Virus record (IMG/VR): IMGVR_UViG_3300012956_000016
Coordinates: 19,935-83,934 of that record
Direction: 5' to 3' (one strand)
DNA length: 64,000 nt
DNA from: a virus
Taxonomy: Duplodnaviria > Caudoviricetes
Shown: one piece after another, positions 4,001-58,021 of the stretch
Numbering within the stretch: position 1 is the stretch's first letter
How the letters are laid out: every line of letters begins with the position of its first letter
Notes under the pieces: generated by a model
What the model was told of the DNA's origin: nothing
What the model saw: the letters and a program-made list of their open reading frames with translations, nothing else
The model's database searches: none
Made by a program: the position numbers and the translations under genes

Positions 4001-5707
4001 GAAGAATATATGAAGATTAAAGATCAAAACGAGTTGCTTAATAAGTTACTTGAAGATGGTGTTTATATTCATCCTGATGATGTAAAACCTTTACTTGATA
4101 CTAAGATCATTCCGGAAAAACTTTTTGATGTTATCAACTACGAAGAGTTACAACCTTCATCTGAGAAATATCAAAAAGGTTTAGAGTCTATCACACAATG
4201 GATAGAAGCAACTAGTGTTCCTGTTGAAGAAGAAACTCCTACAGCTGAACCTGTTACTCCAGAAGGACCTGTTGATGTTGTTCCTATTAGTGAGATCACT
4301 AAAATAACTAACACAACTCCTTTGTCTGATATGCCATCTGATTTAGTTGATGACTTAATCGAAGCATTTCGTGCAGAGAATCGTAGTAGAGTATCTAATG
4401 GTGAAGACTTAATAGGTAACTACAAACCAGATAATGATAATTATACTGTTAGAAGTTTACCTGGATTCAAAAGTTATGTTACAGTATTCAGTAAACCTAG
4501 AGCTATCATAGCTGAGTTTAACACACGTACTGGTAGAACTGTTGATCAAGTTGTTCCTGAAGTTAAAAAAGAAGAGCCTAAAGTAGCTCAAGTATCTTTG
4601 ATCATAACAAATGATATGAAACAACAGTTATATGATCTTGGTTATTCTAAAGAAGATGTAAACAAATTACGTCCTGCAGAAGCTAATCATCTCATCTCTG
4701 GTAACATAACTAAACCAGTAAAAGCATTAACTCCTGAAGAGGATATCGAAAGAAGAAGGCAGAAAGAATTAGAAGGATATTACGGTTATGGTAATGTAGT
4801 AAAAAGATTATTAAGTGAACATAAACCTACATTGGCTTTATCGCAATTATATTTTACAGGAGATAATGATATAGAGATTACAGTAGATGGTAAAAAATAT
4901 AAGATTGTTAAAGACGGTAAATACTTAGCAAAAAATGTTATAGATGAATCTGGTAATATTGTTGCTAAGTTTACTGTAACTAATGGTACAAGTGATGTTA
5001 TAGAAGATCGTGGATTAATGAATAAAAAAACTTTTTATGATTTCATATCTCGTATAGAAAATGATATACCATCAGAATATCGACAAAAACTTATAGATGA
5101 AATCAATACTAAATATGATGCAGAAATAGCTGCTTTAAAACAAGATCCTAAAGCTCTTAAAACTATTGAAGATATATTCAAAGATGCAACGACTCTTGAA
5201 GAGATTGAACAAGCCGAGGAAGAAGTACTAGCTACTTTAGCTAATCCAGAAGCTCGTAGAAAAATCAACCTTACTAATGAGTTCTTAGTGAACTTGATAG
5301 AAACTCGTAAAAGAGAACTTCTTACTGCGTTTACTTACGAAGAAATCGTACCAGGGAACGTATTAGTAATGTCAGATAATTCTAAAATGTTAGTGGTAGA
5401 AAAATCGGATACTGAGTTAAAATTGCGTAAATTTGGTGACGAGGGAGACAACTTTACTATAGTTAAAAAAGATGTTGTTCCTACAACAATCAAGTACAAG
5501 TACAAAGAAGGTATGGAAGATTTAAACATAAATAAACCAGTTACTCCAGAGGAGAAAGAGATTTCAAATCAGAGTGTGCAAAACTTCACTGAGTTCAATG
5601 AAGATGATGATGCTGCTTCTGTAGATGAAGATATGAAGAAAGCTTCTTCTATGTCGAAAGAAGATCGTAATGATGACTTAACTAATATTCTAGGCTGTAA
5701 AAAATAA
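1013..5707 (+). CDS. Large virion cargo/ejection protein (1564 aa) with hydrophobic segment and SH3/KOW-like inserts
   Basis: Long ORF immediately before the vRNAP; hydrophobic Ala/Gly-rich stretch GFGAGVVNFG...AALAAATAITFG; DIERRRQKEL...INTKYDAEIAAL module; function inferred from position. Confidence 0.7.
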   Translation: MPDPNTPITPLIGNTVNPLTLENSDYKVPELPNTPIYKGPDTSVSKQDIDNIKNQPKTVFGDKIKGLVKKMDDAPKWAADLTPYGKVVSYDADYTGANFQRYYSHSKFQQLGFSPFRDNETLYNQKGNWTDEAGRMLRGWSSLFATGAMDGVKSWADNPFDPEPDNETARDMERKMSRMTSSKEGFGAGVVNFGANTAYSMGLVTEFIAESAALAAATAITFGADAPVTASVEAARAATLANKLGNMGKMVSNTYKTLTSLKDLNTAKNFFKSVNAGETLGKAMKFINPLEQTTAFIKETNKALKSGEQVYNMAKAAKGFGAFINDIRQTQMVMSEANLEGGSVENDMVKQLTDDFYRINGRMPNTSEAYDINNTAGIAGNKTIAWNMPALYLSNKIVFENAFKGYKPMRILAAENSEGLAGKLVFNQSWKKAGVNPWSVVEDGWKNNLKSLTKASTWAPKNLAKNLLVNGIGYTSKNLTEALQEQYQEAVSGSMNQYYTKIYQDPSKAGSDEMGSIFTDNLSKQFTTMQGFETFASGFFMGGVLQGPQKLVFEKVPQKIFQMKSPEQYAERKKQTQEWTDKVVESLNEVTKDPAAYFNTASENMVVQRSSNTSMREANENNDEKSFRDIADESTFNHLHTVINSGKYDLILGHLRDMKQLSPEELQDAFGPVPTKQDPQTYYNNKVDSLIRRAEDIKKRSDAVNEQFMNPFNPYKYSKTTENEAYIGEFIRYKAYEDAKKAAVYSQHTFDRTLSRMKDIITDVTNDIPISKANSTDFTLLFDSKALDNEINALDLEVKAFTGGGNAQQRQQAKLSQDKKEALEELRSNINHYRSGLKDNTSKNKSDERNRATTVQKGSKVRNVKDGSEGVVEKVVGKYAILKDGTKVNRKYLENKNKKVQPDHHLDEALDMFYSSYKNYLSTIANISKDHIFEDKVNDSFAKLKDYYGLEHDSDGLANSINLLHNPSSFIDYSKQMEEVRRSLYEKRTEHTKKALEEYMKIKDQNELLNKLLEDGVYIHPDDVKPLLDTKIIPEKLFDVINYEELQPSSEKYQKGLESITQWIEATSVPVEEETPTAEPVTPEGPVDVVPISEITKITNTTPLSDMPSDLVDDLIEAFRAENRSRVSNGEDLIGNYKPDNDNYTVRSLPGFKSYVTVFSKPRAIIAEFNTRTGRTVDQVVPEVKKEEPKVAQVSLIITNDMKQQLYDLGYSKEDVNKLRPAEANHLISGNITKPVKALTPEEDIERRRQKELEGYYGYGNVVKRLLSEHKPTLALSQLYFTGDNDIEITVDGKKYKIVKDGKYLAKNVIDESGNIVAKFTVTNGTSDVIEDRGLMNKKTFYDFISRIENDIPSEYRQKLIDEINTKYDAEIAALKQDPKALKTIEDIFKDATTLEEIEQAEEEVLATLANPEARRKINLTNEFLVNLIETRKRELLTAFTYEEIVPGNVLVMSDNSKMLVVEKSDTELKLRKFGDEGDNFTIVKKDVVPTTIKYKYKEGMEDLNINKPVTPEEKEISNQSVQNFTEFNEDDDAASVDEDMKKASSMSKEDRNDDLTNILGCKK

Positions 5708-55568: not shown

Positions 55569-56066
55569 TTACTTTATAGGTTTACCATCTTTGAACTTTA
55601 CATACTCTCCACGTTTTACAGTGACAAAGTACATACTATCAACACTTACTTTTTGTATAGCATATTTGTTAGCTACATAAATATCAAACTCAGTTCCTAT
55701 CCAGGTTACTTCTTCATCAGCTACATGCATAGACCTATGATGAGGTCTAAATCCGTAGATAATTGGATGGTAGATTGGATGGTAAGTATTACGATACATA
55801 GGATGCGAATAATGATTCGAACTATGATAAGTACTGTGGCTGTAGGAATGTGATGATGAATGGAAGCTGTGTGATGAGCTATGTGATACATGAGAAGAGT
55901 GAAATCCAGCTTGTAATACCACAGGTTCTGTTGTATCACAATGAGCTTTTATATACTCTTTATGTACTACATATCTTGATACATCTTTAGGAGTTTCTTG
56001 TTCTTTACTTGTGCAGCTTACTAATGCGATAGTAGCTACGATTAAAATAGACATTTTTGTCTTCAT
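55569..56066 (-). CDS. Lipoprotein with His/Ser-rich low-complexity segment
   Basis: Start set at MKTKMSIL (56066); lipobox ALVSC; HSSHVSHSSSHSFHSSSHSYSH. Confidence 0.75.
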   Translation of the reverse strand: MKTKMSILIVATIALVSCTSKEQETPKDVSRYVVHKEYIKAHCDTTEPVVLQAGFHSSHVSHSSSHSFHSSSHSYSHSTYHSSNHYSHPMYRNTYHPIYHPIIYGFRPHHRSMHVADEEVTWIGTEFDIYVANKYAIQKVSVDSMYFVTVKRGEYVKFKDGKPIK

Positions 56067-56103
56067 AGGTTTATTGGTTTTTAGTTGTTTGTTTTTAAAA
56101 AAT

Positions 56104-56277
56104 ATTGAGTGTCTATCTCCTCCCCGCTGTCGTGCTAGGATAGTACATAAAGCAGAGACTCTCACTCTGTCACTCGGTTGCCCCTTGGTATTCCTACCTC
56201 AGTTCACCATTGCACCGTTGGCGAATACTCGGGCAGACTGTTCCCGGTTAACTTTAATTAAAGGGGAACCACTCAAT
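56104..56277 (-). ncRNA. Candidate structured ncRNA (about 175 nt) abutting the tRNA-like gene
   Basis: Terminal 8-bp IR ATTGAGTG/CACTCAAT; internal GTATTC/GAATAC, CAGAG/CTCTG and CTTT/AAAG stems; no credible ORF. Confidence 0.5.
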
Positions 56278-56279
56278 GT

Positions 56280-56353
56280 GGGTCAGAATAGGATTTGAAC
56301 CTATGTTTCGTTCATCGGTTAGAACGCGTCCTAACCAGTTAAACGATCTGACA
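56280..56353 (-). tRNA. tRNA-like gene with 8-nt anticodon loop (identity undetermined, possibly pseudo)
   Basis: GTCAGA/TCTGAC acceptor, GTTT/GGAC D-stem with GG, CGTTC-TAACCGAT-GAACG, ATAGG-TTCAAAT-CCTAT T-arm. Confidence 0.65.
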
Positions 56354-56360
56354 AATAAAG

Positions 56361-56574
56361 ATCACTAAGTTATCTTCTCTTACATTGTATATAAACTTCT
56401 CGGCAGAGTGTTCATTTTAACACAGATCTAAACTAATATATGTCTAGTCTTTTACTTGTGTCTAGTCTATATACCTCAAGTAATCAGTTTATGTCAATCG
56501 AAGATCCCAGCTAGAAGGCTCGCTTTTATAAGATGGCTCCATCTATCCCGCAGCGGTGACTTTACCTTAGTGAT
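56361..56574 (-). ncRNA. Candidate structured ncRNA (about 215 nt) between two tRNA genes
   Basis: Terminal 9-bp IR ATCACTAAG/CTTAGTGAT; shares ordered blocks with the 61.9-62.7 kb element. Confidence 0.5.
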
Positions 56575-56578
56575 TTAG

Positions 56579-56650
56579 TAGCGGGAGGTGGATTTGAACC
56601 ACCGACCTCGAGATTATGAGTCTCGCGAGCTACCCCTGCTCTATCCCGCA
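56579..56650 (-). tRNA. tRNA-Met(CAT), initiator-like
   Basis: Cloverleaf; anticodon CAT at 56618-56616; T1:T72 mismatch and A11:T24 pair; CCA not encoded. Confidence 0.9.
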
Positions 56651-57075
56651 ATGTTGTTTTGTACATGTTTAATGTAAGACTTTAATACTCCATCAATATT
56701 AGCTTTTCCAACAGGATTAGCTGATTGCATGTTATACTTTGGTAATTCTTTATTGTGATCCATACAGTAGTTAACTAACCACTTAGCACAGTCATATCCT
56801 GTAAGTTCATGTTCTGGCCACGGTTGACCATCAAAATATTCAGGATAACCATTTCTAAAAGCTTGATAATCTCCTAAATCATGATCAAAGCAAATAGCAT
56901 CAGGTAAACCATTAGTTGTTATCCAAGCTACGAACTCATTATAAGACTTAACCCAGATTACTTCAAAAGGTTGTTGTATAGGACTAAAAGTCCAAGCCCA
57001 TTTACTCTCACCAGGACAATATCCAAGAGGATCACGGTAATCATCAAGCCACAGTAGTTTTTTCATTAGTGACAC
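56641..57075 (-). CDS. Cyclic-phosphate-processing receiver (cREC) domain protein
   Basis: LWLDDYRDP, VKSYNEF, ICFDHDLG, TGYDCAKWL, QSANPVG. Confidence 0.8.
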   Translation of the reverse strand: MSLMKKLLWLDDYRDPLGYCPGESKWAWTFSPIQQPFEVIWVKSYNEFVAWITTNGLPDAICFDHDLGDYQAFRNGYPEYFDGQPWPEHELTGYDCAKWLVNYCMDHNKELPKYNMQSANPVGKANIDGVLKSYIKHVQNNIAG

Positions 57076-57278
57076 CAGTTTTGTTTATACTTACCACATG
57101 GACATATCCATCCTTCTTTTGTAGCTATTAATACACCATCTTTTGATCGATCTCTTGGCTCTTGATTAACTTCACATTCAGGAGCTTTTCTATCACATGT
57201 ATAAGGATGCATCCTACGAGAAGATTGGTACTCATTTAGTTCTTTAACTTTCTCGTCTGTAAAAGGTGCTTTTATCAT
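57066..57278 (-). CDS. Small Cys/His-rich phage protein
   Basis: HPYTC...C...GWICPC...QNWCH. Confidence 0.7.
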   Translation of the reverse strand: MIKAPFTDEKVKELNEYQSSRRMHPYTCDRKAPECEVNQEPRDRSKDGVLIATKEGWICPCGKYKQNWCH

Positions 57279-57298
57279 AATCTTAAGTTTTAATAAGT

Positions 57299-57327
57299 AA
57301 AAAAGTCCAGATCATTCGACCTGGACT
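57299..57327 (-). terminator. Intrinsic terminator downstream of tmRNA/tRNA-Pro
   Basis: AGTCCAG/CTGGACT stem followed by T5. Confidence 0.7.
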
Positions 57328-57418
57328 CACATGACCCCTGTCTTATGGTCCATTGTTTGACAACATTAACAGTCTTTACCACAAACTCGGTCAACGAGCA
57401 GAGTTGAACATGCATTCG

Positions 57419-57492
57419 TCGAGATGGCCAGATTCGAACTGACGGCCTCCACGTCCCAAACGTGGCGCGATACCGGGCTACGCTACATCTCG
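57419..57492 (-). tRNA. tRNA-Pro(TGG)
   Basis: CGAGATG/CATCTCG acceptor, CCACG-TTTGGGA-CGTGG, TTCGAAT T-loop; CCA not encoded. Confidence 0.93.
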
Positions 57493-57585
57493 TGGTATGG
57501 GTAACAGTATTACTACCGAAGCTACTACCCCATCTTTGATTGTTTATACCTGTCCGTAGCTGGGTCGTAAATATAAACTAACCTG

Positions 57586-57970
57586 TGGACCCGGAGAGAT
57601 TCGAACTCTCGTCCAAATAATGAATAAAAATGCTTTCTACGATGTTTAGTACTGACGAACTGTACTGTAGATATTACACCTTTTTACTCTTAGGTTGAGG
57701 ATCTTTGGTAGAAGCAGAACACACCCTGCTTCAACTACCATACGGTGTTCGGTTAGGCTGCTACTAACTCTCTTTTTGCAGTAGCTTTAACAGCACCTGC
57801 GAAATCGAATTTTACAACTTTACCTTCAGCGGCAATAACATCTTGGATGTTACCTACCTCGTTAGAAACGATAGCTTTTATCTTTTGAAAGTTCAGATTA
57901 AAGTGCTCTACGGACAACGCACTACATGCTTACATTTTTACCGCGATTACTGTCAAAACCGGTCGGGCCC
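57586..57970 (-). ncRNA. ssrA: Transfer-messenger RNA (tmRNA)
   Basis: 5' GGGCCCGACCGGTTTTGACAG; 3' GGACGAGAGTTCGAATCTCTCCGGGTCCA; G3:U70 pair and A73; tag ORF 57875-57753 ending LVAA*. Confidence 0.93.
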
Positions 57971-57990
57971 ATTATTTTAAAGAACTGGAA

Positions 57991-58021
57991 CAAAGATAAT
58001 ACTTAATCTTTGTATTCCAAA
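57991..58021 (-). promoter_or_regulatory. Consensus Bacteroidota promoter driving tmRNA
   Basis: TTTG (58021-58018), 19-nt spacer, TATCTTTG (57998-57991), 20 nt upstream of the tmRNA 5' end. Confidence 0.75.

Follow-up and report, generated by a model that had tools for sequence, protein, structure and literature searches.

A candidate structured RNA among the tRNA-type units of a phage RNA cluster

Do the non-coding intervals between the tRNA-type units of a phage RNA cluster hold RNA genes of their own, set free when the tRNAs are processed? The question is raised by positions 56650–56104 on the minus strand of the DNA analysed here (the window, a stretch of 64,000 nt to which all coordinates refer unless stated otherwise), where a tRNA, a non-coding gap that we call E1, a tRNA-like unit and a second non-coding element, E2, follow one another. 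The window belongs to an IMG/VR virus record of 83.9 kb (IMGVR_UViG_3300012956_000016) with a GC content of 35.1% and an estimated completeness of 70%. The nearest kin of its DNA polymerase are three IMG/VR contigs at 41–43% identity, all of which lack the RNA cluster, and a 189-aa gene near the cluster has zero homologues among 5.8 billion proteins. Among the sequencing-run matches, a single activated-sludge metagenome run, probably the source, carries the stretch almost whole; no RNA run is among those listed as carrying it. When the contigs of four runs were compared, E1 and E2 were found to be covered in the activated-sludge run only, the matches in the remaining runs being confined to the tRNAs, the tmRNA ends and the cREC gene. 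The phage thus appears to be an orphan, uncultured inhabitant of sewage sludge, and two weak hints of a Bacteroidota host are the identity of its tRNA-Pro to Bacteroidota tRNAs (up to 88%) and the Bacteroidota-style signal of the lipoprotein gene downstream of E2. Elsewhere in the window, three consecutive giant ORFs of 1564, 3362 and 1902 aa (1013–21506) occupy the plus strand, opposite to the rest of the window.

All parts of the RNA cluster lie on the minus strand, in the order tmRNA, tRNA-Pro, trailer, orf70, cREC, tRNA-Met, E1, tRNA-like unit and E2. The tmRNA gene (57970–57583; 67.5 bits in Rfam) is of the one-piece kind and is missed by ARAGORN; it possesses the G3:U70 alanine identity pair and an unusually long tag frame (57875–57753) of 40 codons that ends in ...RELVAA. 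The 129 nt that follow tRNA-Pro (57492–57419) are GC-rich, have a fold z-score of −2.15 and end in a canonical 11-bp terminator (the segment spans 57290–57418, the terminator 57328–57303). The codon score of a 41-codon ORF found there is −0.68, for which reason the segment is probably a third non-coding structured trailer and not a gene. Behind the terminator come a promoter-like site (57301–57274) and orf70 (57278–57066). At the far end of the cluster, E2 is followed directly by AU and a run of six U (56103–56096), a possible 3' end, and the lipoprotein gene (56066–55569) starts 38 nt past the end of E2. The lipoprotein itself contains a long His/Ser-rich tract (HSSHVSHSSSHSFHSSSHSYSH...) that suggests metal binding; neither a Pfam match nor a relative in metagenome contigs was found for it. 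A related strain is represented in wastewater run X2 by one 940-nt contig of low depth, in which 57385–57673 (tRNA-Pro and the 3' part of the tmRNA) is replaced by 197 other letters between flanks that are ~85–98% identical, a replacement that implies an evolutionarily fluid cluster.

The gene directly upstream of tRNA-Met encodes a cREC_REC protein (57075–56641; Pfam PF20274, E 3e-21; codon score +0.40) and overlaps the start of the tRNA by 10 nt; with such an overlap, a shared transcript is probable. The protein, with its receiver domain, is a predicted cyclic-phosphate phosphoesterase: it would process ends that bear a 2',3'-cyclic phosphate, and it has a link to RNA ligases (PMC7824862). 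Of 51 unrelated viral contigs, 12 (loci L018, L019, L020, L024–L026, L029, L030, L043, L045, L047 and L051) have cREC_REC in or beside a tRNA array, often with a tRNA within 70–400 nt, a recurrence which suggests that cREC is linked to tRNA biology.

The first of the four units in question, 56650–56579, scores 64 bits against the Rfam tRNA model (RF00005; cut-off 29) and is identified by ARAGORN as tRNA-Met(CAT); its cloverleaf has a 7-nt anticodon loop with U33. The original prediction had called it fMet-like, and the alignment bears this out in part: a U1:U72 mismatch and an A11:U24 pair are present, but the anticodon stem consists of C-G, G-C, A-U, G-C and A-U pairs and lacks the three consecutive G:C pairs of an initiator. 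Short of this full set of bacterial initiator tRNA-fMet features, the unit is compatible with an initiator, an elongator Met or an Ile2 identity.

The third unit, 56353–56280, is also above the tRNA gathering threshold (35 bits vs 29; E 6e-5 in 3 kb), and its T arm, D arm and acceptor stem are normal save for a U1:C72 mismatch. ARAGORN finds it at a lowered threshold only and gives it a four-letter anticodon, 'accg'. The anticodon loop comprises 8 nt, UAACCGAU, without U33, and is not the canonical 7-nt loop of a triplet-decoding tRNA. When the unit is folded alone, a rod plus T arm beats the cloverleaf, which is not the minimum free energy (MFE) structure, and the fold z-score is −4.0. At 35 bits, this tRNA-like unit may not be a substrate of RNase P or RNase Z. 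CCA is not encoded after tRNA-Met, tRNA-Pro, the tRNA-like unit or the tmRNA. Four-letter anticodons are also assigned by ARAGORN in other phage tRNA arrays, at 2659–2732 of L018 ('cgaa') and 3405–3499 of L020 ('aaca'), and tRNA-type units with an 8-nt loop may recur in arrays of this kind.

Each of the two intervening elements is closed by a perfect helix between its own ends. In E1 (56578–56354, 225 nt) the arms at 56574–56566 and 56369–56361 form 9 bp, and in E2 (56279–56104, 176 nt) the arms at 56277–56270 and 56111–56104 form an 8-bp helix, P1. The spacings between tRNA ends and helices are 4, 7 and 2 nt, the helices beginning 4 and 2 nt past the end of the preceding tRNA. We asked how often dinucleotide shuffles give a perfect helix of the same length between the first and last 25 nt of an element, and found 29 of 20,000 for E1 and 66 of 20,000 for E2. 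The joint chance of two independent terminal helices is ~5e-6, and the pair is not due to chance. When 601 nt are folded together, the four units form separate, insulated domains in the MFE and centroid structures alike, and the closing helices pair with a probability of ~0.65 (~0.68 for P1), as compared with 0.70 for the tRNA-Met acceptor stem. A terminal helix that holds both ends is a common design of stable RNAs. Rfam, ARAGORN and the folds thus place all four elements where they had been predicted to lie, with the closing inverted repeats of 9 and 8 bp intact and the separations within the 2–7 nt first described.

The best reading of this arrangement, to which we assign a probability of about 45%, is a tRNA-punctuated RNA operon like the tRNA region of phage T4, from which at least E2 would be freed as a stable RNA. 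Since a terminator follows tRNA-Pro and a promoter-like site comes next, we propose a single transcript that would start near 57300, past the terminator, run through orf70, the cREC gene, tRNA-Met, E1, the tRNA-like unit and E2, and end at the T-run at ~56096. The cuts would be made by tRNA-processing enzymes of the host. RNase P would cleave at the 5' end of each tRNA-shaped unit, and, since no CCA is encoded, the 3' ends would require the action of RNase Z or exonucleases followed by CCA addition. These cleavages would free E2 as a stable RNA of ~176 nt with its ends locked by the 8-bp helix. E1 would be freed likewise, yet it is probably spacer for the most part, and an internal promoter may lie in its AT-rich part. 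What we infer here is that the parts are transcribed together, that RNase P and RNase Z cut the transcript and that the products are stable, along with whatever function they may have; the observation behind the original prediction is confirmed, and its interpretation as tRNA punctuation is partly supported.

The GC content of E2, 0.489, exceeds the genome mean of 0.351 by about 4 SD (SD 0.033, 176-nt windows). In all 84 kb, windows of at least 0.48 GC are confined to E2, the tRNA-Met region and the tRNA-Pro region with its downstream segment. High GC within an AT-rich genome is the usual compositional signature of structural RNA genes. The predicted fold of E2 (−54.4 kcal/mol; z-score −1.99, a modest gain over shuffles) consists of the closing helix P1 and four hairpins, A (56269–56240), B (56235–56179), C (56169–56153) and D (56151–56112), and the U-run immediately past P1 would provide a defined 3' end. 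The GC anomaly, the autonomous fold, the closing helix with the T-run behind it and the non-coding nature of the segment make E2 a good candidate for a structured RNA gene, credible but unproven. From the company it keeps (tmRNA, tRNAs, the odd tRNA and cREC), one might guess that it takes part in the biology of tRNAs or translation, or in RNA-damage conflicts.

E1 is of uneven composition. Its first 79 nt (56578–56500) have a GC content of 0.47 and the other 146 nt one of 0.295; the element as a whole has a fold z-score of −2.48, and for its GC-rich 5' part the fold shows no gain over shuffles (z +1.4). Within this part, 11 nt from the 5' end of tRNA-Met recur exactly (56552–56542), which suggests the relic of a duplicated tRNA. 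Further on, a sigma-70-like match (56464–56435; TAGACA, an 18-nt spacer and TATATT, 10/12 positions) is overlapped by a 10-nt direct repeat, AGACTAGACA, present twice (56468–56459 and 56450–56441), although such promoter matches are not enriched over shuffles. If the promoter is real, the closing helix would be without its 5' arm in transcripts from it; the site would split E1, which would count against the operon reading. Judged by its composition, E1 is probably for the most part an AT-rich spacer with a promoter-like site, but a pure spacer leaves the 9-bp helix without explanation. The two discrete non-coding RNAs of the original prediction are therefore probably one too many: E2 has the signs of a structured RNA, whereas E1 is largely AT-rich spacer.

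Rfam 15 (4227 models) was searched with the whole window at gathering thresholds, with 3 kb at E <= 10, and with E1 and E2 each alone at E <= 10 and lax filters. Over the window, the search returned the tmRNA and three tRNA-type units and nothing further. On the RNA (minus) strand, neither element contains an Rfam match at E <= 10; the search with E2 alone (201 nt) gave chance-level matches only, GP_knot1 on the plus strand and mir-14 running past the E2 3' end. Residual tRNA, tmRNA, 6S, SRP, RNase P, riboswitch, ribozyme, GOLLD or ROOL signal is absent from E1 and E2 in these Rfam searches, and the description of the intervening elements as uncharacterised holds by this covariance-model check.

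Searches for relatives gave a similar picture. A blastn search of 50,697 phage records in 'distant' mode, with positions 56000–58000 as query, returned tRNA-Met matches only. Relatives found through cREC comprised 51 viral loci, 80 metagenome loci and four contigs from the 5.8-billion-protein set, and in these cREC-linked loci nothing like E2 was found by blastn, nhmmer or a covariance model of E2. In the best cREC relative (69% identity), the downstream DNA is 780 nt of unrelated non-coding sequence, and no recurring non-coding element was found downstream of cREC in other phages. The covariance model of E2, which in a positive control recovers E2 at 221 bits, found nothing in 54 loci, in 10 whole viral records with tRNA arrays or tmRNA, or in 151 Bacteroidota genomes. 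Exact-pattern scans of IMG/VR (two E2 segments and the odd anticodon arm) and of prokaryote genomes (a hairpin-A pattern) yielded zero or chance matches. In sum, the phage genomes, IMG/VR, metagenome loci and Bacteroidota genomes searched yielded no homologue of E1, of E2 or of the tRNA-like unit.

A 17-mer of E2 is present in 19 IMG/VR contigs from 7 unrelated families, close to a rough chance estimate of ~5, and 8 of these contigs (L151, at 4113–4517, and L155, L156, L157, L159, L160, L161 and L167) carry two-piece (permuted) tmRNA genes with the tag ANDSSYALAA. In the two-piece tmRNAs the pairing partner of the shared 17–19 nt, which come after the tag stop codon, lies downstream; in E2 it lies upstream. 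Given this different pairing and the absence of a tmRNA-family match, we regard the 19-nt identity as a coincidence and do not relate E2 to tmRNA.

The sequence family of E2 appears to be new, and a singleton so far, while extra RNAs in phage tRNA clusters are a known kind. Beyond composition, the sequences of E1 and E2 give no sign of selection. The modest folding z-scores (−2.0 for E2 and −2.5 for E1) and the lack of homologues and covariation count against the operon reading.

Of the alternatives, the one that survives best takes E1 and E2 to be non-functional leftovers, decaying tRNA or RNA genes in a shrinking array plus spacer, with the helices as relics or luck. Both the exact copy of the tRNA-Met 5' end and the low GC (0.295) of most of E1 speak for it, as do the damaged look of the tRNA-like unit (8-nt loop, no U33, 35 bits) and the lack of conservation of either element in any relative; the replaced tRNA-Pro segment of the X2 strain points to cluster turnover. 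Decay accounts well for E1 and poorly for E2. It should bring the GC content of a gene towards the 35% of the genome, and E2 still stands at 49%; tRNA signal is absent from E2, for which the 201-nt search gave neither a tRNA nor any other Rfam match even at E <= 10, and the search with E1 gave none either. The joint chance of ~5e-6 for two independent terminal helices also argues against luck. As an account of the pair, we consider decay unlikely, if by no means far-fetched.

A second possibility, which we regard as distinctly improbable, is that E2 acts in cis as an mRNA terminator, attenuator or 5' leader governing read-through into the lipoprotein gene (56066). AU and six U do come at once after P1, the lipoprotein gene is next on the same strand, and 12 nt of E2 at hairpin D (56152–56141) are perfectly complementary to the lipoprotein coding region (55969–55958), ~100 nt into the ORF. 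The complement could be a pairing site, but it is near chance level, one 12-nt complement per 2.2 kb having a rough estimate of 0.1–0.5. Moreover, P1 closes a 160-nt multi-branch domain, unlike the usual terminator hairpin, the sole terminator-like call inside E2 (56169–56153) is hairpin C and not the end formed by P1 and the U-run, and E2 has no match to a riboswitch or leader family.

The tRNA-like unit prompts a further reading, in which E1, the tRNA-like unit and E2 are domains of a single RNA of ~475 nt and the tRNA-like part serves as an internal module and does not signal a cut. The preference of this part for a rod-plus-T-arm fold and its abnormal anticodon loop would suit such a role, and large phage RNAs near tRNA genes exist (GOLLD and ROOL). 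Set against this, the three parts are insulated domains, each with a closing helix of its own, E1 is mainly AT-rich with a promoter-like site inside, and no GOLLD or ROOL match is present; we think a single RNA very unlikely. We would attach equally little weight to the idea that E2, perhaps with the tRNA-like unit, represents a new class of phage RNA that works with cREC in RNA-damage conflicts. In that event E2 would be produced by tRNA-style processing of a transcript shared with cREC. It might act as a decoy or sponge that keeps host anticodon nucleases, or other defences aimed at RNA, occupied; alternatively, it might be a substrate or guide for the end-healing of cut tRNAs.

That E1 and E2 are MITE-type mobile elements inserted in the tRNA array is close to refuted: both have perfect terminal inverted repeats and a length of 170–215 bp, but neither is flanked by target-site duplications, each is present as a single copy in the 84-kb genome, IMG/VR scans and a search of 50,697 phage genomes yielded no copies, and the two are unrelated to one another. 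E1 has stops in all six frames, and every minus-strand frame of both elements has stops. Least credible of all is a protein encoded by the interval, for although two open frames do exist (a 95-codon plus-strand frame over E2, 56011–56298, and a GTG-extended lipoprotein frame reaching 56165), the former has codon log-odds of −0.35 to −0.49 (of 18 small ORFs treated as genes, 17 score +0.06 to +0.58 and one −0.09), it has no Pfam match and runs antisense to the lipoprotein signal peptide, and the lipoprotein has a textbook lipobox start at 56066. By these tests E1 and E2 appear to be neither coding, nor repeated, nor mobile.

The tRNA-punctuated operon can be compared with several known systems. 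In mitochondrial tRNA punctuation and in the tRNA-miRNA (TMER) genes of murine gammaherpesvirus 68, tRNA-shaped units cue cuts by RNase P and RNase Z, and the tRNA-like unit of a TMER is not aminoacylated and serves mainly for processing. It thereby parallels the processing-signal role proposed for 56353–56280, although these systems are eukaryotic or organellar and have no homology to the phage units. The RNAs GOLLD and ROOL of phages and prophages, often found next to tRNA genes, are 500–800 nt long and widely conserved, with strong covariation. E2 resembles them in being phage-borne, structured (by prediction), of unknown function and a neighbour of tRNA genes, but it differs in its 176-nt length, its orphan status and its lack of an Rfam match. 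The 3'ETS-leuZ of E. coli is a sponge RNA from a tRNA operon spacer, short, linear and base-pairing. Like E2 as proposed here, it is freed as a by-product of tRNA precursor processing; unlike it, E2 would be a domain of 176 nt with several hairpins and both ends locked, and the search for sequences complementary to E2 gave no significant target.

At present the value of the locus is that of a flagged candidate, a single orphan sequence from one sludge metagenome, and its precedent is phage T4. The T4 RNAs RNAC and RNAD (the 'species 1 and 2' stable RNAs), ~120–140 nt in size, are cut out by the tRNA-processing machinery. E1 and E2 resemble them in lying in or next to a phage tRNA gene cluster and on its strand; they share no sequence similarity with them (blastn, 50,697 phage records), and E2 would be larger than the T4 species. 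Both T4 RNAs are transcribed from the tRNA region, and their biological role is unknown (PMC3014915). Together with the intrinsic signs of E2, this precedent makes release by tRNA-processing enzymes a reasonable mechanism. A further example, unrelated to that of T4, would support the view that phage tRNA arrays are general RNA production units and not plain codon-usage patches, and the present one sits beside a phage tmRNA and would share its operon with a predicted cyclic-phosphate-processing enzyme.
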